Origin: a virus
Reading direction: 5' to 3' (one strand)
Virus record (IMG/VR): IMGVR_UViG_3300035703_000041
Location: 31,225 to 95,224 of that record
Length of the DNA stretch: 64,000 nt
Position numbers and translations under genes: made by a program. Shown here piece by piece: positions 4,879 through 32,050 of this stretch (positions are counted from its first letter, which is position 1; every line of letters starts with the position of its first letter). The notes under the pieces were generated by a model. It saw only the letters and a program-made list of their open reading frames with translations. It was not told the DNA's origin and ran no database searches.

Positions 4879-7800
4879 ATGATCAATAAAACAATACTAA
4901 ATGAGGGCGGCAATGTTGAAATAGATGGCATTGCTGCCCAACGTCTTGATTTAAACAAAGTTTCTCGCAGTGCTGTAGTTGCTGAAATAGATAAAGCACT
5001 ACAAATTATTAACAGCACATTTAATAAAGCATACGGAGTTCCTTTATGGAGCCCAGAATTAATAAAAAACAAAGAGTTTTTAAGTGGTAGTGCGTTTCAC
5101 TTCTTTAACGTAAAAATACCAGATGATCAATTCACTAAAGTTAAGTCTAGCGTTGGTGACATCGACACTATGGTTGATAAAGATTTAGCACAAAAAGCAA
5201 GTGACTTTTTAACTAAAGCAAAAGGCAAGCAGTTTGGACCAGCAAAGTTAGTTGGCTTTAAACCTAACCCAGGAATGGATACACTTATTAGTTTGTGGCA
5301 ATTCAACAATCCACCTGTGAATGTACAAATAGATATGGAACTTGTCGACTACGATAAAGGTAGTCCAACAGAGTGGAGCAAGTTTAGCCACAGTAGCGCA
5401 TGGGAAGATTTAAGTGTTGGTGTTAAAGGCGTATTCCACAAGTATCTATTGCGTTCGCTAACACATAAAGATGCTAAAGATCGCTACATTCAAATGAAAA
5501 CAAAGCTTAAAAAAGTTACAGCAGCGGATTTAGCGTTTGCTGTTTCAGGTGGCGTGCGTAATAAGTTTGAACCAGTAATTGATCCAAAAACTAAAAAAAC
5601 AGCAGTAGCACCAGACGGACTTCCAATATACAAGGAAGTGCCAGCAAGTGAAAGCAAGTATGTAACAGACATTAAAGGTATGTTTACACTTTTAATTGGA
5701 CGCAAACCAGTTAAAGGTGAAGAAAAATTATTGGGTAGTTTTGTTGGCGTACTATCTTTAATCAACAAATATTTTAGCAATGAAGATAAAGATAAAATCA
5801 CAAGTGCATTTATGGCATTAATATTTGGCCCTGCTGCTCAACAACTATACAAAGGTGATCCAGCAACAGATAAAAGAGAAAAAGAAATTGCTCTTAACAA
5901 AATGTTGGAAATTTTAAAAGTTAATGTTGATAAAGCAAGTTTAGCAAAAACTGTTGCAGATTATTATTCTAAGTATAAAGCTGAATCAATTACAGAAGCA
6001 GATGCACCAGACTATAAGCGTCAAGGCATCAAGCACATTTATAATCCTGGCTCAACTGTTGAAATGAAAGATGTTGACTTCTTAGCATTTATTGATGCAA
6101 TTGCTAAGAATGGTGGCACACTTGATAACATACCAATTACACTTAAAGTAGATGGTGCAGGTATACGCTTTGGACGAGATCAAAGTGATAAACCATTTTT
6201 TATGACTAGTCGTGTTACAAATCCAATTTACGCTGATAACGTTGGTATGTTTGAAAAGTACGCTAGAGATAATAATGGCAATGAAGAACAAATTGCTCGT
6301 GCTGAAAAGTATGATCAAGCATTAAGTTTAATTGTTAACAGCGACTTTATTAAAGTATTACCAAAAGACACAATTGTCCAAGCAGAAATGATGTACAATC
6401 CAATGGCTGAAAAGACAAGTGCTGGACTTAAGTTTGTAAACATCCCATATGATCCAAAGTTACTTGGTAAACAAATGACGCTTGTGCCAATTGTCGCAAG
6501 TACATATTCAACTGGCGAAGCATTACCAAACACAATTCTTCAAAAAGTAATAAGCAAGTCTACTCCTCAAATTAAAATACTTGGTACTGAGTTACAGCAT
6601 AGCGATATTGATGTAAAAAATATTGTTGAACCAATTGCTAAGATGGATGATACGCTTCGTGCTGCGTTAGCAAGTAGGAAGAAAAATGATCCAGCAAAAG
6701 CAAAAGCAAAAGAAATACTAACAACAGCACGCAAGGCAATTAGTGATGCAATCATTAATAGCCCTAACATTAAAGGTAAAGATAAGCTAGGTAAGACTAT
6801 TGAAGGTTTAGTTATTGCTATGCCAAATGGTCAACTTGCTAAAGTTACCAGTAGCGAAATGAAAGGTGCAATGGCTGCAAAAGCTATTAAGAAAGCACCA
6901 ACAACAGGCAGCAATAGAACTAAAGCTGCTATTGTTACTGCTGGTAGCTTTGTTGGCCACATAGGTCATCAAAAAGTTGTTGATACTGTTATTAACTTTG
7001 CTAAAAAAGTTGGCGGTGACCCGTACATTTACATTAGCAGTAAAGTGGGACCAGATGATCCTATTCCACCAGAAGTAAAATTAGCTACTTGGAAGAAAAT
7101 GTATCCAGAGTATGCAAAAAGTTTCCAACTAATTGTAAGCCCAGATGGTGTAACTGTTCCAAGTCCAGTTAAAAAGATTGAAAAAGAATTAGTACTACCA
7201 GCAAACAGTCCTTACAAAAAGATTGTATTAATGGTTGGTACTGATCGTTATGAAGGTTTCAAGAAGTGGATGGATACTCTTGAAAAGCGTATGAAGGATC
7301 CAGTAGCATTAGCAAAATATGGTGGAACACAAGATCAAGTTGATTACGAAACTATTGCTATACCACGCGGCGCAGCATTAGGTGGTATTGATGCAAGCTT
7401 CACACAACTACGCAATACATTAAAAGATCCTAATCTTTCACTAAAAGAAAAGTTAGCTGTTTGGTCAAAAGGATTTGGTGGAAAGCTAGACGAAGATTGG
7501 ATCAAAAAGTTAATGATGCTTTCTGCTCAAGGCATGGGAATTAAGTTAGGAGAAGCTAAATCACCATGGGATAAAATGGTTAGAGCTGTTCCCAAACTAA
7601 AAGGACATGAAGATAGAGTTAACGATATATTAAAAGCAATTAAGCAAGCAAATGCAGAATATCAAGCAATACTTGATAAAGAAAAAAATCCATTAAAAGA
7701 AGATGATGATCTAAATGTCCGTTTCCATGATACATTAAATCCAGCACTATTTAGAAATAACAAGATGAGTCCTATCGTAAGAGAAAAGCTGCTAAAAATA

Positions 7801-10800
7801 GCAGAGGACTTTAAGGATAGTTTAGGTGTTAAGTTACCAAATCTAAAAGACATTACTGTAAGTGGCAGTAATGCTGCATTCACTTATACACCAAAAAGTG
7901 ATATTGATCTACACTTAGTTGTTGATTTACCTGAAGCAGATGGCGATGCTACTTATAGGGAATTGTTTGATGCTAAGAAGTTCCAATACAACGAGCAGCA
8001 TGACTACAAGATTAAAGAATACGATGTAGAACTTTATGTGCAAAATGCAAATGATGAACATGTAAGTCAAGGTATCTACAGTGTAATGAATGATGCTTGG
8101 ATTAAAGAACCACAACCAGTAAGTGGCGAGTACGATGAAGACAGCACACGCGCCAAATATGATCAAATAAAGTATCTCATACAAAAAGCATTAACTGTAA
8201 GAGATTATGCTTTAGCAGACAAGCTACGTCGAACTATTAAAAAGTATCGTCAAGTTGGGTTACATTCAACTGGTGAGTTTGGTCCTGAAAATCTTGCATT
8301 CAAAGCATTGCGTGCTAATGGCTACATTAAGAAACTGTATGAGTTATTAAATGATATTAAGGACAAAGAGTTTAGTTTAGAGAGTAACGATCAACGATTA
8401 CTTGAAATTGATATGAGTCCAGGAGCACTCAAAAAGTTCTCAACTACTGAGATTGCAAAGTCAACTAGTGTTGGTTTTGAGTTTGAAATGATCGTACCTA
8501 ACATGATAGATGACGGCAGTGAAAGTGAACCAGATTACGATTATGATGAATATGTAACAGATTCAACTGTTACTGCTATGCAAGATGATTTAATTAGATT
8601 CTTTAGAGATACTGAAACAAGTACAGCAATTAAACGAGCAGTTGAAGAAGTATCAGATGAAATAAATGATTTTATTTTAATGGAGTTTGATGGTGAATTA
8701 GATTCTGTAGATCAGCAGAGACGATTAAGAGAATTGTATAAAGCAGATACTTCACTCGAAGATGATGAAATAGAAAAGAGCATTGAAGATCAAGATAGCA
8801 CTTATGACGAAGTATTAAGTTCTTTGAGAGATGAGTATATGGAAGACTGGGACAATCTAAGTGGATTCTTAGAATATAACAGTCTTGAAATGATGTCTGA
8901 ATGGGCTAGTAGATTTAATTGGGAATGGCCACACTACACTGAAGCTGGCAGCGATGAAGTCGACGAACAAGCAATGCGTGAAGTAGCAGATGAAATCAAA
9001 AACGCTGTTAGTATGTCAGTTAGGTCTTCTCCTAATTATCATGCATTTAAGAAAAATAGAGAATCTGGTGTTTGGTATTTAGAAACTGATAGTTCAATTA
9101 ATGCTGATGAAAGTTCTGGTGAAGGTGGACTAGAATTAGTAAGTCCTCCATTGCCACTTGAGCAAGCATTAGAAAAGTTAGATGCAGTTCTAAATTGGAT
9201 GCAGAGATACGGCGCATATACTGATAGTTCAACTGGGTTCCATATGGGTGTAAGCATTCCGCAAATGGAAAATGTTGACTACATTAAGTTAATATTATTC
9301 CTAGGTGACAAATATGTATTAGATCAATTTGGTCGTTTAGGCAATTCATACACCCGCAGCGCACTAGATAAGATGGAAGTACAAAATGTTCCATATGTTA
9401 TGAAAAACATGCCAACTGTATTTGATGCTCTAAAAGGTGGATTAAACAAAGCAGCATTAAAAATGCTTGAATCAGCTCTTGTACCTCGAGGAGACAAATA
9501 TACTAGCGTAAACATTAAGGGCAGCACAACACCTAGTGGAGACATCAAGGATAATTACATTGAATTCCGTAGTGCTGGTGGAGATTACTTAGAAGCGATT
9601 GAAAAGATTAAAAATACACTATTGCGTTATGTTCGTGTAATGGCGCTTGCTGCTGATCCAAATGAAGCAAAGGAAGAGTATGCTAAGAAACTCTACAAGA
9701 TGCTATACAATGCTCAAAGCAATAAAAATGAAGATAATGTAGTTAGATTGTTTAGTATGTTTGCTAGCGGCAATATTTCAAAAGCAGAACTTGTAATGAA
9801 GCTTAAGGCAAAACAAGAATTAAGATTGGCAAAGAAAAGAGGCCCAATTGATTACGCAGTCTTAGATAGGAATAGCGATCCTATTACTATAGTTAAAGCA
9901 ATTAACAATAGCGAAGCTTTAACAAAAGGAATAGAATGGGAAAGAAGCAACCCAGTATCTGGCGGTGTGAGAGGTGTAAGATTAGCGACACTAGACGATA
10001 TAAAAGCTGTAGCTAATAGAAATACTGAAGGACAATGGCAACGTTGGAATGTTTATGGACACGAAGGACAAATCTTTACTAGTGTTTCAGCTCGCAATCG
10101 TCAAGAAGCAAGTCAACTTGCACTACGCTGGGGAAGAGAAAACGATAGTGTTATTTCTCATGTTACTCCTGAATCTGAGGATGAATTTGCAGCACTACAT
10201 AGAACAGAATCAAAAGAAGTTGTAACTGAACTTGCTAACAAGCCATACCCTTTTAAAACACAAGGCAATAAAAAGCATTTTCAAGCTCGTTTCGTAACAG
10301 ACAACAAACTAGTGTATAATGTTATGATTTTGGTCCCTCTTGAAGATTTTGAACCAAATAAAGCAGAAATAGAATTTTTCTCTGAAAATGAAGATGTTTT
10401 AAGAGGACATAAAATAACTGGAACTGGTGATTCTTTTAAAGTATTTGCGACTGTGTTAGAAATAATAAAAGCTTATCTAACAAAGCACAAAACAATCAAC
10501 GAATTTGAATTTGGTGCTAACAAAAGTGAACCGTCCCGTGTAAAGTTGTATGACACTATGGCAAAAATGTTACCAAAATATATTAATAATTTCAAATTTT
10601 TCAATAAGTATCCAAATAACTATAACGGATTCGCGTACCATTTTGTAAAAGTCAAAAAACCAACTACAGTAAAAGAAAATGAATTTGTAACTGAACTTGC
10701 TAATAAACCATATGAATATGATTTAGAAAGCGATAGCAGAGTTCTTCGTGCTACCTTTAAAACAGATGCTGGTCAACCTTATAGAATTTATATCGTAAAA

Positions 10801-11286
10801 GAGAAAGACGAAGAAGGGGAAGTAAAATATATCTCTGTTGAGTTCTCTGCTCTTAAATATGTAGATGGTCGATTCTTAACTACACAAGCTAAAACCGGAA
10901 CAGGTGACGCATTTAGAATATTTGCAACAGTTGGTGCAGTACTAAAACGCTATTTGGATGAAAATCCAGAAATTACTAGATTTGAATTCTCTGGTGATAA
11001 GGATGAACCAAGTCGAATAAAGCTATATGACACTATGGCTAAAATGTTGCCTAAGTTTATTCCACAATTCAAACTAATTGAAATTGAAAAAGGATTTATG
11101 TTTAATCATTATCAATTTTCAAAAGTAAGTAATGAATCAAAAAATCCAAGTTCATTGAAAGAATATATTGAAGTATCTTACAAACCTTTTATTCGAGAAA
11201 AGAAAGAAGAACCAAAAAAAGAGTTAACAGACATGCAAAAAGCGTGTATACTAGGCGGACAAGAATATACAGGTGAGATAAACTAA
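4879..11286 (+). CDS. 2135-aa multidomain polyprotein: Pol-beta-type nucleotidyltransferase, ligase-like domain, HIGH nucleotidyltransferase, second nucleotidyltransferase, amidoligase, duplicated C-terminal domain
   Basis: SGS...GDID...QIDM; KVDG...QAE...EGLVI...AK; GHIGH...VGTDR; SGSNA...SDIDLH; GFEFE...LELVSPP...GFHMGVS...IEFRS; two VTELANKPY repeats; domains separated by [LIV]xE linkers. Confidence 0.8.
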   Translation: MINKTILNEGGNVEIDGIAAQRLDLNKVSRSAVVAEIDKALQIINSTFNKAYGVPLWSPELIKNKEFLSGSAFHFFNVKIPDDQFTKVKSSVGDIDTMVDKDLAQKASDFLTKAKGKQFGPAKLVGFKPNPGMDTLISLWQFNNPPVNVQIDMELVDYDKGSPTEWSKFSHSSAWEDLSVGVKGVFHKYLLRSLTHKDAKDRYIQMKTKLKKVTAADLAFAVSGGVRNKFEPVIDPKTKKTAVAPDGLPIYKEVPASESKYVTDIKGMFTLLIGRKPVKGEEKLLGSFVGVLSLINKYFSNEDKDKITSAFMALIFGPAAQQLYKGDPATDKREKEIALNKMLEILKVNVDKASLAKTVADYYSKYKAESITEADAPDYKRQGIKHIYNPGSTVEMKDVDFLAFIDAIAKNGGTLDNIPITLKVDGAGIRFGRDQSDKPFFMTSRVTNPIYADNVGMFEKYARDNNGNEEQIARAEKYDQALSLIVNSDFIKVLPKDTIVQAEMMYNPMAEKTSAGLKFVNIPYDPKLLGKQMTLVPIVASTYSTGEALPNTILQKVISKSTPQIKILGTELQHSDIDVKNIVEPIAKMDDTLRAALASRKKNDPAKAKAKEILTTARKAISDAIINSPNIKGKDKLGKTIEGLVIAMPNGQLAKVTSSEMKGAMAAKAIKKAPTTGSNRTKAAIVTAGSFVGHIGHQKVVDTVINFAKKVGGDPYIYISSKVGPDDPIPPEVKLATWKKMYPEYAKSFQLIVSPDGVTVPSPVKKIEKELVLPANSPYKKIVLMVGTDRYEGFKKWMDTLEKRMKDPVALAKYGGTQDQVDYETIAIPRGAALGGIDASFTQLRNTLKDPNLSLKEKLAVWSKGFGGKLDEDWIKKLMMLSAQGMGIKLGEAKSPWDKMVRAVPKLKGHEDRVNDILKAIKQANAEYQAILDKEKNPLKEDDDLNVRFHDTLNPALFRNNKMSPIVREKLLKIAEDFKDSLGVKLPNLKDITVSGSNAAFTYTPKSDIDLHLVVDLPEADGDATYRELFDAKKFQYNEQHDYKIKEYDVELYVQNANDEHVSQGIYSVMNDAWIKEPQPVSGEYDEDSTRAKYDQIKYLIQKALTVRDYALADKLRRTIKKYRQVGLHSTGEFGPENLAFKALRANGYIKKLYELLNDIKDKEFSLESNDQRLLEIDMSPGALKKFSTTEIAKSTSVGFEFEMIVPNMIDDGSESEPDYDYDEYVTDSTVTAMQDDLIRFFRDTETSTAIKRAVEEVSDEINDFILMEFDGELDSVDQQRRLRELYKADTSLEDDEIEKSIEDQDSTYDEVLSSLRDEYMEDWDNLSGFLEYNSLEMMSEWASRFNWEWPHYTEAGSDEVDEQAMREVADEIKNAVSMSVRSSPNYHAFKKNRESGVWYLETDSSINADESSGEGGLELVSPPLPLEQALEKLDAVLNWMQRYGAYTDSSTGFHMGVSIPQMENVDYIKLILFLGDKYVLDQFGRLGNSYTRSALDKMEVQNVPYVMKNMPTVFDALKGGLNKAALKMLESALVPRGDKYTSVNIKGSTTPSGDIKDNYIEFRSAGGDYLEAIEKIKNTLLRYVRVMALAADPNEAKEEYAKKLYKMLYNAQSNKNEDNVVRLFSMFASGNISKAELVMKLKAKQELRLAKKRGPIDYAVLDRNSDPITIVKAINNSEALTKGIEWERSNPVSGGVRGVRLATLDDIKAVANRNTEGQWQRWNVYGHEGQIFTSVSARNRQEASQLALRWGRENDSVISHVTPESEDEFAALHRTESKEVVTELANKPYPFKTQGNKKHFQARFVTDNKLVYNVMILVPLEDFEPNKAEIEFFSENEDVLRGHKITGTGDSFKVFATVLEIIKAYLTKHKTINEFEFGANKSEPSRVKLYDTMAKMLPKYINNFKFFNKYPNNYNGFAYHFVKVKKPTTVKENEFVTELANKPYEYDLESDSRVLRATFKTDAGQPYRIYIVKEKDEEGEVKYISVEFSALKYVDGRFLTTQAKTGTGDAFRIFATVGAVLKRYLDENPEITRFEFSGDKDEPSRIKLYDTMAKMLPKFIPQFKLIEIEKGFMFNHYQFSKVSNESKNPSSLKEYIEVSYKPFIREKKEEPKKELTDMQKACILGGQEYTGEIN
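10220..11130 (+). repeat. tandem duplication of a ~150-aa domain inside the giant ORF
   Basis: TTGTAACTGAACTTGCTAAyAArCCATA at 10220 and 10685; both copies contain TGTGD(S/A)F.(V/I)FATV and EPSR.KLYDTMAKMLPK. Confidence 0.9.
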
Positions 11287-11287
11287 A

Positions 11288-11434
11288 ATGCCAGAGAAAA
11301 AGTTTAATGATGACACTGCTAAAACTATTTGGAACAAACTAAAAGGTAAGGATGTTCCACAAGACTACAGTGATAAAGACAAGGAAGATATTGTTAAACG
11401 ATACTGGCATAAAGCAATGGAAAGCGAACAGTAG
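11288..11434 (+). CDS. small hypothetical protein (48 aa, not in ORF track)
   Basis: MPEKKFNDDTAKTIWNKLKG...AMESEQ*; its TAG stop overlaps the GTG start of the next gene. Confidence 0.6.
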   Translation: MPEKKFNDDTAKTIWNKLKGKDVPQDYSDKDKEDIVKRYWHKAMESEQ

Positions 11435-11964
11435 TGTTATTAACAGATTACTATAAATCTGTTTTAGAAAAAGAACACGCCAACGGAGAATGGGGTATTG
11501 CTTCTGTTCATTATGCACCACGTGTTGCAAATATGATGAAGCGTTATAATCTAAATGAAGTTTTAGATTACGGTTCAGGTGCAGGCAATTTAGAAAAAAC
11601 ACTAAAAACTATATTACCTGATGTAATTGTTTATAATTATGAGCCAGGTATACCTAAATGGAATATTATTCCAGCACCATGTAAAATGGTTGCTTGTATT
11701 GATGTTATTGAACATATTGAACCTGAGTGTATAGATTCTGTATTAGATGATTTAGAAAGAATTATTGAGGGTTACGCATTTATATCAATTTCTACTACAT
11801 TAGCAAATAGAGTATTAAACAATGGATGGAATGCTCACATTTGCCTAAAAGATCCACAAGAATGGAAAGAAATTTTTGAGAGAAGATTTCAAATAATTTG
11901 CCCTGGAATGTATGACGGCGGTGTAGAAATTGAAATATGCAGGAGAGACAATGAAAATATATGA
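11434..11964 (+). CDS. class I SAM-dependent methyltransferase
   Basis: VLDYGSGAG motif I; CIDVIEHIE. Confidence 0.8.
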   Translation: MLLTDYYKSVLEKEHANGEWGIASVHYAPRVANMMKRYNLNEVLDYGSGAGNLEKTLKTILPDVIVYNYEPGIPKWNIIPAPCKMVACIDVIEHIEPECIDSVLDDLERIIEGYAFISISTTLANRVLNNGWNAHICLKDPQEWKEIFERRFQIICPGMYDGGVEIEICRRDNENI

Positions 11965-12469
11965 GTTAGCAGGTAAACCAACAGTTTTCGTAGATATGGA
12001 TGGCGTGCTTGCTGACCTGTTTAACCACGTTGGTGACATTCACGATGTTGAACATTACAATCAAATGACTGATCAACAGTGGCAAGATTTTTTTCAAAAT
12101 ACTAATGCTTATCACTTGTTTAAGGATTTACCCCCATTCCCAACAGCAAATCGTTTACTACGTATGGTAAAAGGAATGGTTGGTGGATACAAAATTCTTT
12201 CAAGTCCACTTAACTTTGACCGTGAAGGCAGCATAAAAGGCAAGCGTGAGTGGTTAAGTAGGCATATATCTGTAGCCCCAGATGGCGTTATTTTCGAGCA
12301 TGAAAAATACAAATATGCTGTTAGTAACGGTAAACCAAACATATTAATTGATGATTACGGTGTAAACATTAAAAAATGGCGTGCTGCTGGCGGTATTGGA
12401 ATTAAGTACCAAGCAGATGAAAACAGTTTAGAAGAATTAGCGGAACAGTTAGCGGCTGCTTTGAAATAA
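11951..12469 (+). CDS. HAD-family 5'(3')-deoxyribonucleotidase-like protein
   Basis: FVDMDGVLAD, ILSSP, LIDD motifs; start moved to MKIYEL at 11951 (AGGAG SD). Confidence 0.85.
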   Translation: MKIYELAGKPTVFVDMDGVLADLFNHVGDIHDVEHYNQMTDQQWQDFFQNTNAYHLFKDLPPFPTANRLLRMVKGMVGGYKILSSPLNFDREGSIKGKREWLSRHISVAPDGVIFEHEKYKYAVSNGKPNILIDDYGVNIKKWRAAGGIGIKYQADENSLEELAEQLAAALK

Positions 12470-12491: not shown

Positions 12492-14177
12492 ATGAAAATT
12501 AAAGAATTATTAGAGGGTGTTGGACGCATTACACCATATAATCAAACAGTTGATGTAGGGCCAAACGAAATCAAAAAACAAGCAGCTAAGTTTGGATTTA
12601 AAGTAGACAAGGACGGTTATCCTCCTGTTATAGGCAACGGACGCTACGCTAAAAATTCCACCCCTAACAAACTAATGAATCTTGGACTTACTGAATCAAA
12701 AATTATTGAGGCTAGAGGTGTAACTGCTCGCGTTGCTGGTGAGCGATACATAAATGATAAAGATCCAAATGATTACAGAGTTATCCAATCCATTAAAGTT
12801 ATAAATCCACCAAAAACTCCAGCATACAAAACCGCTGAAGAACTTAAAGCTGCTATCAAGGAATATCTTCCTAGAAATGCTAAAACAGTCGATGACAACA
12901 AACATGGCAGTGATTTAAGAGCTGCAATCATAGCAAAAGTTGCTACACCATCAAATGATGTTGAGTATTGGATAAGGTATATTAAAGCAGTACCTCCAAC
13001 GGGTGTACATCAAATGTGGCAAACACTACGCGGATACAGTTATGATAATCCAAGATCAGCTAGTGAAAAGATTAAACTTAAACCATCTGATTTAATTAAA
13101 GATGAAAGTCCTAAAAATCTAAAACAACTAGCAACAGAAATTATGTCTTCTATCGAAGCAATGGGTGATGAAGAGTTGACAAACGCAATGCGTCAAGCAG
13201 TTAATCATGCCGTACAAGGTAAAGACATTGTAATTAAAGATGGTGTTAAATTTGCTACAGCTATATCTAAATATGCAGGAGAATATTTAGGTGCAATGTC
13301 GCTGATGACCGGTAAGATCATGAAAGGTGATCTTAAAAAAGCTATGGAAGCATTAGACATTAATACATTAAAAGGCAGTAAAATTACTTTCCCACAAGCA
13401 AGATTGCAAGAACTATATGACAGCACTTTAACAACATCAGATGGCAAAATATTACAAATAAGCACCAAGATGCATAAAACCGGTTCTGGATCAAGTTTAA
13501 GCGGTGTAGTAAAGCAACTTAATGATGATATTGAATCACAGTATCCAAAAGGTGCTGCTGTTTTACGTATGCTTGGTGGTGAATCAAGTGGTGCAGCTGG
13601 TGTGTTAAAAGCTGCTCAAGAGTACAAATTAATTAATGCCTCAGATGTAAAAGAAGTAATGAGTATGGATCCTGGTTCTAAAGATCCAACAATTATTAAA
13701 AGTCCAAGATTGCAAAGATTATTTTCAGAACAAAAAGTTAGTGCTGGAGCACCAAAAAGATTTGGTTACACAATACGCAGACATTTAATGGCTGCTATTG
13801 CAAACAGGACAGTTAAAACAATTAATGAAGATAATGAAGTATTAACTGCACTTATGCTCGCTTTAAACAACAACAATTATTTGCAAGTTGTTACTGAAAC
13901 ATCTATAACTGGCAACGATGTTACTATGACTTTTTATACAAAATATCCAACAGAATTTAGTGGCAAACCTAAATTACAAAATGCTGCTTTTTGGAGCACT
14001 GGTGAACAAGGTAGAATAGCATTCTCATTACCTACAACTAATGTTGATGTTGAAGTTGAAGAACCAGAAGTAGAAGTTCCAGTAAAAAGAAAACCAGTAC
14101 CAATTACAGCAAGAAATCCTAAATTAGATAAATCAAAGTCAGCCCCGAAAGGAGTTGGTCGCGGTAAGAGGGATTAA
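12492..14177 (+). CDS. two-part protein with MKIKELLE leader; C-terminal part possibly PD-(D/E)xK nuclease-like
   Basis: TAAATA at 12467; linker LTESKIIE|ARG; LYDS...LQISTK resembles the D...(E/Q)xK nuclease pattern. Confidence 0.55.
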   Translation: MKIKELLEGVGRITPYNQTVDVGPNEIKKQAAKFGFKVDKDGYPPVIGNGRYAKNSTPNKLMNLGLTESKIIEARGVTARVAGERYINDKDPNDYRVIQSIKVINPPKTPAYKTAEELKAAIKEYLPRNAKTVDDNKHGSDLRAAIIAKVATPSNDVEYWIRYIKAVPPTGVHQMWQTLRGYSYDNPRSASEKIKLKPSDLIKDESPKNLKQLATEIMSSIEAMGDEELTNAMRQAVNHAVQGKDIVIKDGVKFATAISKYAGEYLGAMSLMTGKIMKGDLKKAMEALDINTLKGSKITFPQARLQELYDSTLTTSDGKILQISTKMHKTGSGSSLSGVVKQLNDDIESQYPKGAAVLRMLGGESSGAAGVLKAAQEYKLINASDVKEVMSMDPGSKDPTIIKSPRLQRLFSEQKVSAGAPKRFGYTIRRHLMAAIANRTVKTINEDNEVLTALMLALNNNNYLQVVTETSITGNDVTMTFYTKYPTEFSGKPKLQNAAFWSTGEQGRIAFSLPTTNVDVEVEEPEVEVPVKRKPVPITARNPKLDKSKSAPKGVGRGKRD

Positions 14178-14191
14178 AATGGGAGATCAAT

Positions 14192-14434
14192 ATGAAAATA
14201 AAAAATACATTGGAGGATTTTACAATCCCCTTCAAACCAACATCACCCCCTGGAACGATCAAAAGAAAAGCTTTAGAATACTTAGGTAAAAAGCTTGGAG
14301 AAAAACTCTCCAAAAAAGATTTAAAACTTGTGGAATCTAAAGCAGACAAAATAAAGAAATCCACAGTTAAGGCAGATAGGCAAATAAATCATCAATTAGT
14401 AAAACAAGTTGAACTAATTAAAGATATAGAATAA
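14192..14434 (+). CDS. small basic hypothetical protein
   Basis: GGGAG SD; MKIKNTLE leader. Confidence 0.65.
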   Translation: MKIKNTLEDFTIPFKPTSPPGTIKRKALEYLGKKLGEKLSKKDLKLVESKADKIKKSTVKADRQINHQLVKQVELIKDIE

Positions 14435-14776: not shown

Positions 14777-15163
14777 ATGACTAAGAAGAGAATTAAAGAA
14801 GGCCTCAGCGACGAAGCTATGGCAGTTGACCGCGACCATGAGGTACAAATGGCTCGCGCTCAACTTTATCATTTAGCTAATGATGCTGTACGCTTACATA
14901 AGTTGTTAAAGAACGTAACTGAATCAGAAGGACTAGAAGGTTGGATGCAAAGCAAGATTACACTTGCTGCGGACTACATTAAATCAACTGCTGATTACTT
15001 GGAATACGATAAGATTAAAGCACCTAGACCAGTAACAGTTACTCCAGCACCAATGATGCCAACTGCTGGTATGCCTGAAAGTGTAAGCGCAGGTGGTATG
15101 GGTGCTGGATCGGTTGCTACTGCTCCAATGGCTCTTAAAAAGAAACCATTAGTTAGAAGATAA
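14777..15163 (+). CDS. hypothetical protein, probable head-internal protein
   Basis: TAAATA at 14746, GGAG SD; RIKE|G leader; LEGWMQSKITLAADY helix motif. Confidence 0.7.
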   Translation: MTKKRIKEGLSDEAMAVDRDHEVQMARAQLYHLANDAVRLHKLLKNVTESEGLEGWMQSKITLAADYIKSTADYLEYDKIKAPRPVTVTPAPMMPTAGMPESVSAGGMGAGSVATAPMALKKKPLVRR

Positions 15164-15905: not shown

Positions 15906-16334
15906 ATGTCACGCGGATTAATGAAAAAGTATATAGATATACTAATGGAAGCTTTAAGCTATTCCAGCTTGCAAGATGCAGGAGATGATTATAGTCCTGG
16001 CAATACTCAAATTTGGTATTGGAGAGAAGATCTTGGACGCGATATGATGATGGGATATGATTTCCTTAAAAAGCAAAACAAGCTTCCGGATCCAGCAAAT
16101 TTATCAGCTACACATGTACTAATTGGTAGCATTGCTGAAACTAATTTAGATAAAATTTATTCAATGATGCAATCAGAAAGTTGGAGCCCACAGGGTGAAG
16201 CTAGAGATTTAATTAATAAAAGCGGGGCTGGTCATACAAGTATGAGTGTTGGTGATATTATTGTAATTAATAATGATGCATCTATGGTTGATAAAGTTGG
16301 GTTCGTAAACCTAGCAACAGGGGAAGAAATATAA
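15906..16334 (+). CDS. YodL-like domain protein with MKKYIDILME leader
   Basis: GHTSMSVGDII motif; TAAATA at 15881. Confidence 0.6.
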   Translation: MSRGLMKKYIDILMEALSYSSLQDAGDDYSPGNTQIWYWREDLGRDMMMGYDFLKKQNKLPDPANLSATHVLIGSIAETNLDKIYSMMQSESWSPQGEARDLINKSGAGHTSMSVGDIIVINNDASMVDKVGFVNLATGEEI

Positions 16335-17710
16335 TGTTACTTGAAAGTTTATTAAAAGAGTTTGATGAAGCAGTAAACAAACCTAAATTTACTGGTTATT
16401 GGAAAGCTCAAGATAAAGCACCTCCAGGCAAGAAAATGGTTGGTGAAGAAGAAAAAACTACAGAAGCATCAACTTTGGATACTGACATTGAATATGAACC
16501 AAGTGTAGATCAAGAGTTTGATAAGAAAGAGCTTGCAGCATTGTTAACTCAAAAATTAACAGGACTAGCACCAAAAGAAGAACGAGCAATTAGATTAAAA
16601 ATATTTTATGATTATACTTATGATCAAATTGGTGAAAAATTTGGGGTATCTGGTGATAGAGCAAGAGACATCTTTATGAAGGGAATTAGAAAATTGAGGC
16701 ACCCTTCTCGCGCGAGAGAAATTAGACCTTTCCTTGAGGATGAAAATCCAACAGATAAAATTACAATGGATATACCACTATTTTTACGTATGATGGAATA
16801 TGCTAAAGAAGATGCAAAAACAGATATGGACTTGCATCAAGTAACTGCTCGCGCAATAGAATTAATGCAACAACATGACTACCTATGTATGGATAATTAT
16901 GATACTATCATAAACAATAGCGAACCTATAGATGAAGGTTGGTTAGATAAAGTTTACTCTGCTGGTCGTAACTTTGCTGATACTGCCACTCTAGGTGGTT
17001 ACAAGTATGCACGAGCTGGTGCTGATTACGCTGCTAAGAACATTGGCAATAAATTAGGGTTCGATGTGAAACCTACCACATATCAAAAAGAACTTGATCA
17101 GGAAGTTGAAAAACTTAACAAAGATTGGGAAAAGGAACCAGGTGCAAGTCTAGCTGGCATGGGTGGAGCAATGGCTTTACCTCTAGCCGGTCAATACGGC
17201 GCTGCTGTTAAAGGCGCACAGGGGTTAGGTGGTCAAGCATTAGATGCTTACGGTAAGTTTGTTAAAACATATCCATTGGCTAAAAAAGCTTTAGGTTTAG
17301 AAAACAAAGATGAAGATATAGATGAAGAGAAAAAAGGTCTTTACTATTATGTAAACAAGCGTAAAAAGGCTGGCACAAGCAGACCAGCTAGTCATCCAAA
17401 AGCACCAAGCGAACAAGATTGGAAGAACGCTGCTAAGACTGCAAAGAAAGAAAGTGTGGGCGAAGCGGGTCAATTTTCATATGGAGCTAAAACTCCACGC
17501 AAAGGCACAGTTGCTTACAACGCAGCACAAAAGCGTAAAGAAGATGAAAAAAGACAAAAACCAATTGAGCCAAAAGATCAAATGGTCGGTGTTGCTAAGG
17601 TAACAAAAGAAGGCAAGGAAAAAGGCGCTGATGGCAAAGCTTGCTGGCCAGGTTATCGTTATGCTGGCACAGAGAACGGCAAAGACAAGTGTGTGAAAGT
17701 TAAGAAGTAA
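16334..17710 (+). CDS. mosaic polyprotein containing a sigma70 region-4 HTH module and several short basic modules
   Basis: LAPKEERAIRL...TYDQIGEKFGVSGDRARDI..KGIRKLRHPSR; modules bounded by LKE, VGE, FLE, IDE. Confidence 0.75.
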   Translation: MLLESLLKEFDEAVNKPKFTGYWKAQDKAPPGKKMVGEEEKTTEASTLDTDIEYEPSVDQEFDKKELAALLTQKLTGLAPKEERAIRLKIFYDYTYDQIGEKFGVSGDRARDIFMKGIRKLRHPSRAREIRPFLEDENPTDKITMDIPLFLRMMEYAKEDAKTDMDLHQVTARAIELMQQHDYLCMDNYDTIINNSEPIDEGWLDKVYSAGRNFADTATLGGYKYARAGADYAAKNIGNKLGFDVKPTTYQKELDQEVEKLNKDWEKEPGASLAGMGGAMALPLAGQYGAAVKGAQGLGGQALDAYGKFVKTYPLAKKALGLENKDEDIDEEKKGLYYYVNKRKKAGTSRPASHPKAPSEQDWKNAAKTAKKESVGEAGQFSYGAKTPRKGTVAYNAAQKRKEDEKRQKPIEPKDQMVGVAKVTKEGKEKGADGKACWPGYRYAGTENGKDKCVKVKK

Positions 17711-19315
17711 ATGTTAATTAAAGATTTGCTACAAGGATCTACGCATGTTAATGAGGATGCTATATCAGATCTTGCCAGTAAATTAAAGAGTACTAAAGCA
17801 ACAAGTTATGATAATATCGATGCAATTATGCAAAAGATAGCAAAAGACAATAATATAACAGCTAAAGAATTACACGACATTTGGGTAAAAAAGTACGGTG
17901 AAAAACCAGATGATTGGATTAAAGATCAACTTAATGAAGCATTAACCGCTAAAGATACAGTTGAACGTTGGATTGCTGTTTTTAAAAGTAGTAAGCATCC
18001 AAAGTTTGCAGGTAAAACTCCTGAGCAGCGTGAGAAGATGGCAAGAGCTGCACAATATCGTGCAGTTCATAATAAAAAAATTAATGAAGCAAAAGTAACA
18101 CTATATACTGATCCATCATACTATGGTGCTGAAGTTGCAGACAATGCTGGCGAAGGTATACCCGTACAAGAAATACCATTAGACAATTTAGTTGGGTTTG
18201 AACCTGACGTTAAAATGCAGGACAAAAAGAGTGCAGCCAATATGTCTAAAATGGTTGACCTATTGAAAGCAGGCAAGGGCAAAGAACTACCACCAATACT
18301 AGTACGCAAGTATAAAAATGGTTATCAAGTATTAGATGGACATCATAGATTCCATGCTTACAAGAAAGCTGGAATAAAAACTATTCCAGCTAAACTTGTT
18401 CCTGATGAAGATATCAAAGTTGTTGATAAAATTGAAGAAGGTCCAGTTTGGGATAAAGTAAAGAATACTGCACTTGCTGGAACAATGGCAGGTGCGCTAG
18501 GGTATGGTGCGCTAACAGGGCAGTTACGTGACGAACCAAGGCAAGTGCCAGTTGACAAACCTCCTTTAGAAATTACTATACCAGGTGGTCAAGCAGAACC
18601 TGAAGTTAAAAAAGAACCAGAAAAACTATCACCAAGTACCGCTACAAACGCAAACAAAGAAATGGAAAAACTCGTGCTAACTGTTGCTTATCGCTCTGGG
18701 ATAAGAGGTCAAGAGTTGGCACAATTCATGGGACAAGTTGCTCATGAGACACTAGGATTTCAACGTTTAGTAGAAGTTGGTAGCGCAGAATACTTTAATA
18801 GATATGATCCAGAACATAGTCCTAAAAAAGCAAAGATACTTGGTAATGTTAATCCTGGTGACGGCATACGTTATAAAGGTCGCGGGTTTATACAAATAAC
18901 TGGGCGTGACAACTATAAGCGTGCTGGGAAAGCACTAGGGATTGATTTAGAAAATAACCCAAAGTGGGCAAGCAGTCCTAAAATTGCTGCTAAGATCGCT
19001 GTATGGTATTGGAAAAGTAGAGTAAAACCAGCAGTGGATGACTATACTGATACTATTGGTGTTACTTCAAAAATTAATCCTAGTATGAATGGTCTTGGTG
19101 ATAGAGACATGAACTTTCATCATTATTTAGAAAAGCTTAATTTAAATGAAAATTTTGCTGATGGAAAGAAACCAGGACGCAAGGGATTAGCCAAAAGAGT
19201 TGGTGTTAATTGTAAACAAAGCGTGACAAAGTTAAGAAAAATTGCTAGTAATAGTAGTGGTGAAAAACAGCGTATGGCACATTGGTGTGCAAATATGAAA
19301 GGCGGCAAAAAATGA
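17711..19315 (+). CDS. mosaic polyprotein with a ParB/Srx-like domain and a GH19 (lysozyme/chitinase) domain
   Basis: PPILVRK...VLDGHHR; AQFMGQVAHET...YKGRGFIQITGRDNY; linkers VNE, LNE, INE, IEE, LNE. Confidence 0.8.
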   Translation: MLIKDLLQGSTHVNEDAISDLASKLKSTKATSYDNIDAIMQKIAKDNNITAKELHDIWVKKYGEKPDDWIKDQLNEALTAKDTVERWIAVFKSSKHPKFAGKTPEQREKMARAAQYRAVHNKKINEAKVTLYTDPSYYGAEVADNAGEGIPVQEIPLDNLVGFEPDVKMQDKKSAANMSKMVDLLKAGKGKELPPILVRKYKNGYQVLDGHHRFHAYKKAGIKTIPAKLVPDEDIKVVDKIEEGPVWDKVKNTALAGTMAGALGYGALTGQLRDEPRQVPVDKPPLEITIPGGQAEPEVKKEPEKLSPSTATNANKEMEKLVLTVAYRSGIRGQELAQFMGQVAHETLGFQRLVEVGSAEYFNRYDPEHSPKKAKILGNVNPGDGIRYKGRGFIQITGRDNYKRAGKALGIDLENNPKWASSPKIAAKIAVWYWKSRVKPAVDDYTDTIGVTSKINPSMNGLGDRDMNFHHYLEKLNLNENFADGKKPGRKGLAKRVGVNCKQSVTKLRKIASNSSGEKQRMAHWCANMKGGKK

Positions 19316-24064: not shown

Positions 24065-24090
24065 TATTTATTTGAAACTACCTATAAATA
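24065..24090. promoter_or_regulatory. back-to-back divergent late promoters
   Basis: TATTTA at 24065-24070 (TAAATA on minus strand) and TATAAATA at 24083-24090. Confidence 0.7.
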
Positions 24091-31048: not shown

Positions 31049-32050
31049 ATGGGACTTCCTCTAAGTGAAATATTCAATCGTCTTATTAAAATAAGAAATT
31101 TGAATTTTGATGGCAATAAACAAGATATCTTAAACAAGATTGATAGTTTTAATAACTACCTTAAAAACGTTAAATTTATAGAATCCAATGAATTAAAAAG
31201 TATTGAAGAAAAGCTAGTTAAAGAATTAAACAATTATAGCGAGTTAATTAAAAAAATTGAACTTAAATTAGAAAAAGCAGTTTTAGATAATGAAGCATCT
31301 TACATTAAAGCAAGCAAAAAAATGTATGTTGAAAATTTAGAAAAAATGTTGTTTGAAGAACATTTAGAGTGGAGTCAACTATGGCCGCCAACTGATTTAG
31401 AATTTGATCATTTTTTAAATCAAATCAAACAATATATTAATTGGCAAGAACCATCTTTAATTTTTGGTGCTAATAATTCTAAAATATTAAAAGCAACGAT
31501 CGGTACTGAGCCAATTTATATTTTAGAACGCTATCCAGAATATTTTAACTTACAAAAAGAAAAATTTAATGTAAGCTTTTCAAGAAAATTACGTTTTTAT
31601 GATATTAACTCAATTAATTTATTACCTAAAAATAGTATTGGGTTATTGATATGCTTTAATGAACTTAACTTTCTGCCGTGGGATATTAGTTCTTATCTAT
31701 TAACTACGTTTTCTCAAATATTATCACCAGGCGGGAAACTTATTTTCAATTATAATAACTGTAAGACACTTAGAGGTTTTGTAGAATTTGAAAACCAAAG
31801 TATGGTATTTTCAACTCCTGAAATGTATATTAAACATTTAAAAAAATATAATTTAAATTGTATACACGAATATACATCAAACAGAGAAACATTTAGTTTT
31901 ATGATTTTTGAAAAAAGCGGAGTTAAAAACTTAGTTAAGAAAAGTCCTAGTGTTGGATATATTAAACAACAGCTAACATTATCAAAACCTGTTGAACACA
32001 AAGCTAGAATTGAACATATTGAAAAATTAATAAACAATAAATTGACCTAG
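31049..32050 (+). CDS. degenerate methyltransferase-fold protein
   Basis: LPKNSIGL...ILSPGGKLIFNYN resembles the C-terminal half of class I methyltransferases; very AT-rich. Confidence 0.5.
   Translation: MGLPLSEIFNRLIKIRNLNFDGNKQDILNKIDSFNNYLKNVKFIESNELKSIEEKLVKELNNYSELIKKIELKLEKAVLDNEASYIKASKKMYVENLEKMLFEEHLEWSQLWPPTDLEFDHFLNQIKQYINWQEPSLIFGANNSKILKATIGTEPIYILERYPEYFNLQKEKFNVSFSRKLRFYDINSINLLPKNSIGLLICFNELNFLPWDISSYLLTTFSQILSPGGKLIFNYNNCKTLRGFVEFENQSMVFSTPEMYIKHLKKYNLNCIHEYTSNRETFSFMIFEKSGVKNLVKKSPSVGYIKQQLTLSKPVEHKARIEHIEKLINNKLT

Follow-up and report, generated by a model that had tools for sequence, protein, structure and literature searches.

A modular 2135-residue protein of a jumbo phage is a candidate capsid-delivered polyprotein with a conserved nucleotidyltransferase, ligase-fold and HxGH-domain cassette

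The window analyzed here, meaning the whole 64,000-nucleotide stretch, is the last 64 kb of the 95,224-bp viral contig recorded in IMG/VR as IMGVR_UViG_3300035703_000041 (positions 31,225 to 95,224 of that record), and on its plus strand an uninterrupted open reading frame (ORF) at 4879 to 11286 encodes a protein of 2135 amino acids. Since CheckV puts the completeness of the contig at 26%, the contig is part of the genome, of roughly 350 kb, of an uncultured jumbo phage. Domain folds, catalytic motifs, a modular build and conserved cut-site motifs are observed in this protein, and from them we infer packaging, cleavage, ejection and substrates: the protein is probably, though by no wide measure, a capsid-delivered cargo polyprotein of a T4-like jumbo phage, a kit that would extend polynucleotide ends and seal nicks.

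The preliminary description of this DNA, made from its letters alone, had read four nucleotidyl-transfer domains in tandem in the protein, and all four are borne out: every motif is present at the position listed in Table 1, and the catalytic residues are invariant in relatives. We call the domains D1 (Pol-beta-like), D2 (covalent-lysine, ligase-like), D3 (HIGH motif) and D4 (a second Pol-beta-like nucleotidyltransferase [NTase]). What that description missed is that D1, D2 and D3 are one module and that proteolysis probably divides the domains, which would then not work as one 2135-residue enzyme. At the nucleotide level the ORF has no match among 50,697 phage records, and a search of 5.8 billion proteins retrieved 340 long relatives, some of 1.9 to 2.2 thousand residues. 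The N-terminal module, A (residues 1 to about 890, comprising D1, D2 and D3), is conserved as a block at 38 to 88% identity in about 70 long proteins, and a further 228 IMG/VR stretches encode relatives of it. The C termini behind module A are unrelated to one another and include ParB, amidoligase, Zeta/AAA_33 kinase, dCMP deaminase, lysozyme with LysM, SleB-type hydrolase, GP88, DUF6321 and GNAT domains. Conservation of D1, D2 and D3 residues was scored in 46 module A sequences covering the same range of identity.

Table 1. Layout of the polyprotein gene in window coordinates, with the window position of each motif in brackets
Feature	Position	Strand	Motifs and evidence
Whole ORF, modular polyprotein, 2135 residues	4879..11286	+	module map by blastp against 120 relatives
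N-terminal leader MINKTILNE, candidate capsid-targeting propeptide ending L-N-E9	4879..4905	+	disordered in AlphaFold2 model; conserved [LIVM]xE
D1, residues 10-373, Pol-beta superfamily NTase, Pol-X-like palm/thumb plus helical tail	4906..5997	+	G70 S71 (SGS, 5083); D94, D96 (GDID, 5155); D152/E154 (QID with D152, 5332)
D2, residues 374-665, covalent nucleotidyltransferase (polynucleotide ligase) domain, no OB domain	5998..6873	+	motif I K423xDG (KVDG, 6145); III E503 (QAE, 6385); IV E642-G643 (EGLVI, 6802); V K655 (AKV, 6841)
D3, residues 666-892, HxGH (HIGH) nucleotidylyltransferase, FAD-synthetase/cytidylyltransferase-like	6874..7554	+	H694-I-G-H697 (HIGH, 6958-6969); S840-F-T-Q-L-R845 (SFTQLR, 7396); phrog_3041 5e-14
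Spacer of 49 residues, L-G-E892 to L-K-E941	7555..7701	+	
D4, residues 942-1176, minimal Pol-beta-fold NTase plus four-helix bundle, AadA/ANT/MNT/CD-NTase-like	7702..8406	+	G996 S997 (SGSNA, 7861); D1008, D1010 (SDID, 7897); E1051 (VELYV, about 8029); phrog_36119 7e-39
Acidic linker, Amidoligase_2 (glutamine-synthetase-like) and further uncharacterised region, residues 1177-1784	8407..10230	+	Pfam PF12224 4e-12
Two DUF6934 repeats, V-T-E/LANKPY before each, plus conserved C-terminal tail (residues 2085-2135)	10231..11283	+	Pfam PF22028

D1 has the features that define the Pol-beta superfamily. G70, S71, D94, D96, D152 and E154 are invariant in the 46 sequences, and in an AlphaFold2 model of residues 1 to 665, which covers D1 and D2 with a predicted local distance difference test score (pLDDT) of 89.4, the catalytic residues lie on the loop and strand at 94 to 100 and on the strand at 146 to 156. 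VIA structure comparison of the D1 model gave Z values of 8.3 for Pol mu, 8.0 for the terminal uridylyltransferase TUT7 and 7.5 for Pol beta, and cGAS/DncV-like nucleotidyltransferases (CD-NTases), OAS2 and cGAS-like receptors (cGLRs) matched at similar Z. Sequence and profile searches of the PDB with D1 returned no polymerase, only low-complexity or helical noise. The predicted D1 fragment is a basic protein of 40 kDa (isoelectric point [pI] 9.2), and D1 also occurs alone, in Campylobacter CP220-like phages and in Vibrio phages.

D2 carries the signature of the covalent nucleotidyltransferases. The lysine of KxDG and motifs III, IIIa, IV (EG) and V (K) follow one another in order on strands of the NTase fold, and K423, D425, G426, G428, R430, E503, E642, G643 and K655 are invariant. 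The D2 model ranks RNA ligases over DNA ligases by 1 to 3 Z units (11.8 versus 8.8). An oligonucleotide-binding (OB) domain with motif VI is absent: the model ends in a helix (659 to 664) after motif V, and the HxGH domain begins at about residue 680, directly behind D2, with no OB-like strands between them. At the level of sequence the domain stands alone, with no match in Pfam, PHROG, NCBIfam or the PDB, where a single sequence and two profiles found no ligase, only low-complexity or helical noise; PF09414 (RNA_ligase) likewise has no match on G000. Comparison of the D2 profile by hhalign with an Rnl5-like ORF (L160) and a DNA-ligase-like ORF (L161) of related phages gave probabilities below 1%, the alignment to L161 being limited to motif IV (EGIVI to EGIMI). 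A full hidden Markov model scan of 1.84 billion representatives found D2 in only 348 clusters, comprising polyproteins, standalone proteins of 280 to 320 residues and, commonly, D2-D3 proteins of 490 to 740 residues; a word-index search for standalone D2 found only 7 fragments. Judged by its model, D2 is a compact, sequence-isolated, RNA-ligase-like family with a clear catalytic lysine. It has no detectable sequence similarity to the nick-sealing RNA ligases of Naegleria gruberi (Rnl5), T4 (Rnl2) and trypanosomes (TbREL1), and it differs from Rnl5 and Rnl2 in a helical insert of about 75 residues. Rnl5 has an OB-like domain at its N terminus and Rnl2 a further domain at its C terminus; D2 has neither and is followed instead by an HxGH NTase. 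Two 457-residue proteins of related genomes (L161:356-1729 and L162:306-1679, in G001 and G002) match PF09414 weakly, but their KLDGVR motif and OB-type C terminus (LRFPRF) suggest ATP-dependent DNA ligases and not RNA ligases.

The assignment of D3 rests on two signature motifs and on profile matches. The domain has the GxFxxxHxGH motif of the HxGH superfamily (G689-S-F-V-G-H694-I-G-H697) as well as GG.G.SFTxLR; G689, G693, H694, G696, H697 and R845 are invariant and T842 is nearly so. RibF matches at 2.5e-4 and aligns to both motifs, SFTxLR falling onto ISSTxxR of RibF. Pfam FAD_syn, a faint match at the HIGH motif of the 2135-residue protein itself, is found in 31/47 family members, the D3 orthologue of Xanthomonas phage BUDD passes the CTP_transf_like cut-off (1.7e-6), and 28 of the 30 named Atlas clusters nearest to D3 are CTP_transf_like. 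The match to PHROG 3041 ("cytidyltransferase") spans residues 666 to 801, and T4-like cyanophages and RaK2-like phages have a homologue of D3 named "cytitidyltransferase", a protein on which our literature search found no paper. Because no conserved cut site lies between D2 and D3, they are predicted to form a single product of 57 kDa (pI 9.4). Three IMG/VR loci (L120, L127 and L152) encode proteins of 679 to 690 residues that consist of leader, D1 and D2 only and end before D3, which shows that D1 and D2 need not share a polypeptide with D3.

D1, D2 and D3 belong together in other genomes too. In two cultured phages of 160 to 200 kb, BUDD and Stenotrophomonas phage Mendera, they are separate neighboring genes in the same order: just downstream of the primase come D1, a gene of about 320 codons, D2 and D3, and after these a ParB-like gene and the gene for the baseplate hub. 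The gene between D1 and D2 has no Pfam or PHROG match and no counterpart in the 2135-residue protein, and by blastp its versions in BUDD and Mendera are unlike each other. Since the three domains are fused in some genomes and adjacent in others, we place them in one pathway; on these comparisons D1-D2-D3 is one conserved evolutionary module, and D2 and D3 are the tightest coupled pair within it. A literature search found no description of the module.

A cassette of this composition resembles a gap-filling or tailing polymerase joined to a nick-sealing ligase, and for this reason we favor repair of nucleic acid ends among the functions listed in the preliminary description; the others that it named, manipulation of NAD or nucleotide signals and protein AMPylation, are possible mainly for D3 and D4. 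Its caution that substrates cannot be read from the sequence was right. Repair of RNA is favored by the ranking of RNA over DNA ligases for D2 and by the missing OB domain, and we place it slightly ahead of repair of DNA. A repair role is also in keeping with the basic nature of D1 and D2-D3 (pI 9.2 and 9.4) and with a sister protein that has an added Zeta_toxin/AAA_33 P-loop kinase domain. In phages and bacteria, NTases of the RlaP family accompany RNA ligases and extend the 3' ends of damaged RNA by one or two nucleotides, allowing tRNA to be resealed (PMC7824862; bioRxiv 10.64898/2025.12.29.696909). These pairs share with the cassette the genetic linkage of a Pol-beta-fold NTase to an RNA-ligase-fold enzyme. 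They differ from it in that PF10127 (RlaP) has no match in the 2135-residue protein at E values up to 1, and hence in neither D1 nor D4; D2 belongs to no Pfam ligase family, an HIGH NTase is part of the unit here, and delivery is apparently by the capsid. PF10127 was also found nowhere in G000 to G004, in a search that did find its positive controls.

Alternatively, the target may be DNA: D1 would act as a Pol-X-type polymerase on short gaps, which it might fill with ribonucleotides, and D2 would seal the nick in the incoming genome, countering damage by nicking enzymes, glycosylases or restriction at entry in the manner of the African swine fever virus (ASFV) PolX/ligase pair, of PgVPolX and of bacterial LigD. 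We regard this as a serious contender, if an unlikely one. It is favored by the Pol-X-like extent of D1, by basic fragments that would be packed beside the DNA, and by the replication genes near the split cassette, which adjoins primase/helicase in BUDD and Mendera as a D3-type gene does in a cyanophage; Atlas neighbors of D1 include clusters with DNA_pol_B_palm or DNA_pol_B_thumb, which we treat as leads only. The DNA reading sits less well with the ligase ranking of D2 and with its lack of an OB domain and motif VI, which all DNA ligases have; moreover, D1 matches no Pfam Pol-X family at E values up to 1, and neither an 8-kDa lyase nor a helix-hairpin-helix domain was detected in it. ASFV couples a Pol-X-type polymerase functionally to a ligase for short-gap repair, and LigD-style "ribo-patch" repair of DNA would reconcile the RNA and DNA readings. 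PgVPolX of Phaeocystis globosa virus, a working viral PolX-ligase fusion that fills gaps and ligates in base-excision repair (PMC5537341), is a parallel in coupling a Pol-X-type polymerase to a ligase for short gaps. Its ligase portion, however, resembles NAD+ ligases and works on DNA, whereas the best matches of D2 are ATP-dependent RNA ligases, and no lyase domain is detectable in D1.

Packaging and processing of the polyprotein, as predicted from its sequence and those of its relatives, are well supported by comparison. In T4 the prohead protease gp21 cleaves after L/I-x-E, and the capsid-targeting sequence (CTS) is the N-terminal decapeptide of IPIII, in which positions 4 and 7 are important for targeting and 8 and 10 for processing; the CTS has been proposed as a general route for loading varied proteins in T4-like phages (PMC9026906; see also PMC3012670 and PMC5694885). 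The protein described here begins with MINKTILNE/GGN (the slash marks the predicted cut), that is, with an N-terminal peptide within the 7 to 19 residues of a T4-type propeptide and ending in L/I-x-E. Among columns 1 to 900 of the 46 aligned sequences, [LIVM]xE occupies at least 50% of rows only at E9 (43/46), E373 (44/46) and E141 (26/46), and at least 90% only at E9 and E373. These two sites fall within the sole two disordered segments of the model of residues 1 to 665 (1 to 11 and 369 to 375), a coincidence whose probability we roughly estimate as (18/665)^2, or about 7e-4. The half-conserved E141 (5299 to 5301) lies inside a beta-strand of D1, and its conservation probably reflects structure, not cleavage.

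The same pattern extends to relatives and to the other module boundaries, each of which follows [LIVM]xE. The leader ends in [LIVM]xE/GGN in 75 of 80 IMG/VR loci, where leaders read MKLLELF..., MLLRELF... or MKISALLE...; proteins with an extra N-terminal domain keep [VI]xE/GGN ahead of module A, and leaderless standalone D1 orthologues start MGGNV, at the residue after the predicted cut. Proteins that begin with D2 very often open with a CTS-like 10-residue peptide of the type MKTFKQFLSE, the Glu being mostly residue 10. D4 is flanked by [LIVM]xE in 38/45 and 34/45 relatives, with ...MVE/SDDLN ahead of it, or MNIHE/LD where D4 comes first, and the amidoligase and DUF6934 modules start right behind RLTE/IDMSPGAL and (V/L)TE/LANKPY. 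A decapeptide of this kind, MKNFFQFLSE/A, also begins the "cytitidyltransferase" of Synechococcus phage SynMITS9220M01 (L159:3653-4879), a D3 homologue (7e-16), and this D3-type protein may also be head-internal. Related genomes of 219 to 353 kb encode Peptidase_S77, the gp21 family, at E values of 1e-25 to 5e-27; it is present in G001, G002 and G003, of which G003 carries the D1-D3 module, and one genome that encodes it is 352,754 bp long with terminal repeats. Sister polyproteins, furthermore, carry peptidoglycan-hydrolase domains of the lysozyme or SleB type. The suggestion in the preliminary description that the enzymes form a pre-packaged kit thus gains the leader, the conserved cut sites in linkers, the gp21-type genes of relatives and the hydrolases of sister proteins, and lacks a protease gene on the contig itself.

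Several findings weigh against the capsid-delivered repair kit. [LIV]xE shows no overall excess in the protein (29 sites versus 32.8 expected), so that the cut-site argument rests on position and conservation only; no prohead protease (PF03420), portal or capsid gene was found on the 95-kb contig, which is 26% complete; and the standalone D1, D2 and D3 of BUDD, Mendera and Vibrio phage pv27 have no leaders, which means that packaging is not a condition for these enzymes to function. These three points would fit a protein that is synthesized after infection and stays in the cytoplasm as an ordinary multi-enzyme, its leader and [LIV]xE sites being incidental and none of it packaged, but this reading leaves unexplained why the two disordered segments are just where the two best-conserved sites fall, why each module boundary follows such a site, why so many D2-first proteins have CTS-like leaders, and why the gp21 family and wall-hydrolase domains occur in relatives and sister polyproteins; we consider it improbable. 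Against the repair function itself stand the lack of sequence-level similarity between D2 and any ligase and the place of D3 beside the ligase, which the scheme does not explain, a role in supplying cofactor to D2 being a guess. In addition, the D1-D3 module is missing from G001 and G002, two relatives with near-complete genomes, and G004 has it together with a canonical RNA ligase. The module is therefore accessory and not simply the RNA ligase of the phage, and we rejected the idea of D2 as a mere stand-in for a missing canonical RNA ligase, since G004 has both.

In the scheme that we favor, a delivered repair kit, the short CTS-like leader would carry the polyprotein into the prohead core, where a gp21-type prohead protease would cut after Glu at the conserved [L/I/V]-x-E sites in flexible linkers. 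Cleavage would release D1 (about 40 kDa), D2-D3 (about 57 kDa), D4 (about 27 kDa), the amidoligase and two DUF6934 pieces, to be ejected together with the DNA. D1 would then most likely add one or a few nucleotides at a broken 3' end or gap, and D2 would seal the nick through a Lys423-AMP intermediate, while D3 might make or recycle an adenylylated cofactor or substrate for D2. D1 and D2-D3 would on this account be an ancient functional cassette that mends host-cleaved RNA (tRNA), or nicks and gaps of the incoming genome, in advance of phage gene expression, and D4 would act separately, alongside the amidoligase.

D4 is a minimal NTase of the NTP_transf_2 or ANT-MNT type. G996, S997, D1008, D1010 and E1051 are invariant in 37 D4 sequences, and Pfam NTP_transf_2 scores 20.1 bits against a cut-off of 21 (residues 982 to 1041); PHROG 36119, a family of unknown function, covers residues 940 to 1167, as PHROG 19290, also unknown, covers 18 to 363 in D1. 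NCBIfam has nothing on the 2135-residue protein, and PADLOC gives only a weak MNT-like match on D4. Folded alone by AlphaFold2, D4 (pLDDT 83) shows a minimal NTase core and a four-helix bundle, and the top ranks in Foldseek are the spectinomycin/streptomycin adenylyltransferases AAD(9), the best at 2.4e-5, and AadA, followed by ANT(4'), CdnE/CdnD and MNT antitoxins. Because helical-bundle matches (residues 150 to 235 of the model) dominated the wide VIA search, the NTase core was read from Foldseek and from a targeted VIA comparison of residues 20 to 144, which gave 6.8 for 2rff, 6.7 for AadA and 6.7 for CdnD. The predicted D4 fragment is a 27-kDa protein of pI 5.3, and the predicted amidoligase piece is 69 kDa. 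D4 defines module B (residues 941 to 1168), which is the first domain of many other proteins; Amidoligase_2 stands nearly always behind it in relatives (7702 to 10230 in the window; P0100 to P0119). D4 probably belongs to a separate activity, together with the amidoligase. The pairing recalls that of GlnE adenylyltransferase with glutamine synthetase, and DrrA, a GlnE-like AMPylase, is a weak match of the D4 profile (E value 0.17).

These matches bear on the view that there is no repair kit at all: D3 would rebuild NAD+- or FAD-type cofactors against NAD-depleting defenses, and D1, D4 or both would make or cap nucleotide signals or AMPylate host proteins or small molecules. In keeping with it, the families closest to D3 are FMN-adenylyltransferases and cytidylyltransferases, jumbo phages carry HIGH-NTase nicotinamide mononucleotide adenylyltransferases for NAD+ salvage (PMC7824862), D4 and D1 match CD-NTases, OAS2 and cGLRs at similar Z, and the contact of D4 with DrrA and its likeness to aminoglycoside adenylyltransferases, which act on small molecules, point the same way. 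The CD-NTase matches are, however, no better than those to polymerases or terminal uridylyltransferases, no NAMPT or Nudix partner is found within the cassette, and a covalent-lysine ligase domain fused to D3 and constantly linked to D1 is left unexplained. We think this view very unlikely, even more so than an unpackaged cytoplasmic enzyme.

Behind D4, module C (residues 1170 to 1690) consists of the acidic linker and Amidoligase_2 and is present in one to four copies in relatives, and module D consists of two DUF6934 repeats and the conserved tail. The C-terminal tail of about 50 residues (11131 to 11283) is found with 59 to 71% identity at the extreme end of many relatives, with or without DUF6934, and may be a second targeting or propeptide element. 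A methyltransferase-like gene (11434 to 11964) comes next, and two genes downstream of the polyprotein lies an HAD-type 5'(3')-deoxyribonucleotidase-like gene (11930 to 12469; phrog_2643, 5e-24) with a weak match to a polynucleotide-kinase PHROG; an internal start in this gene would give MKIYE/LAGKP, and NT5C domains are fused into sister polyproteins. Similar leaders begin the products of further genes at 12492 to 14177 (MKIKELLE/G), 14192 to 14434 (MKIKNTLE/D), 14777 to 15163 (MTKKRIKE/G), 16334 to 17710 (MLLESLLKE/F), which encodes a sigma-70 region-4-like piece, and 17711 to 19315 (MLIKDLLQG), which encodes a ParB-like and endolysin-type protein. This whole run of leader-bearing genes has the look of capsid cargo. 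Of the T4 late-promoter octamer TATAAATA the 64 kb contain a single copy, at 24083 and away from the polyprotein gene; shuffled sequences predict 7.65 copies.

We class the module as a variation on CTS-loaded head proteins, polyvalent proteins and NTase-plus-ligase repair pairs. Among the first, the T4 internal proteins IPI, IPII and IPIII and the packaged ADP-ribosyltransferase Alt are CTS-targeted, gp21-processed and ejected, and they resemble the polyprotein in a short N-terminal propeptide ending in L/I-x-E, in a gp21-family protease in related genomes and in diverse, basic cargo related to conflict. They differ in that many enzymes share a single 2135-residue precursor with internal cut sites here, known from its sequence alone, and in the cargo: the T4 proteins include a nuclease inhibitor and an ADP-ribosyltransferase, this polyprotein nucleotidyltransferases, a ligase and an amidoligase. 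Polyvalent proteins likewise combine several disparate enzymatic domains in one polypeptide, are predicted to be injected with the DNA and have highly variable C-terminal domains (PMC5512222). Their hub domains (MuF, metallopeptidase and ArdC) were not detected in the 2135-residue protein by a Pfam scan, which found Amidoligase_2 and the two DUF6934 domains, and the 2017 survey by Iyer et al. mentions no amidoligase, covalent ligase domain or HIGH NTase and places Pol-beta NTases only in proteins of conjugative elements (PMC5512222). A 2021 survey of jumbo phages discusses RlaP, Rnl1/2 and nicotinamide mononucleotide adenylyltransferases, not the D1-D2-D3 module (PMC7824862).

Phage counter-defense is usually thought to begin with early gene expression, and to our knowledge few pre-packaged effectors are understood, among them T4 IPI*, Alt and the N4 virion RNA polymerase. 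A capsid-loaded repair kit would show that phages also bring in enzymes to reverse damage, whether in tRNA or in their own DNA, which is of consequence where defenses act within seconds or shut down translation. Tentatively, and with less confidence than we place in a delivered kit as such, we propose that the polyprotein is a virion-delivered repair machine in which a Pol-X-like gap-filler or tailer works with a new RNA-ligase-fold family permanently coupled to an HxGH adenylyltransferase. If this is so, the HxGH enzyme might supply or regenerate the nucleotide cofactor of the ligase, and breaks made by defenses in tRNA or in the entering genome would be mended ahead of any phage gene expression; this would be the first virion-delivered nucleic acid repair system in a bacteriophage, and D2 a sixth kind of RNA ligase. 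Since the cassette is present in the cultured phages BUDD and Mendera, genetics is possible, and the large number of CTS-like leaders and gp21-type cut sites that occur in nature would be useful for engineering protein delivery by T4-like phages.

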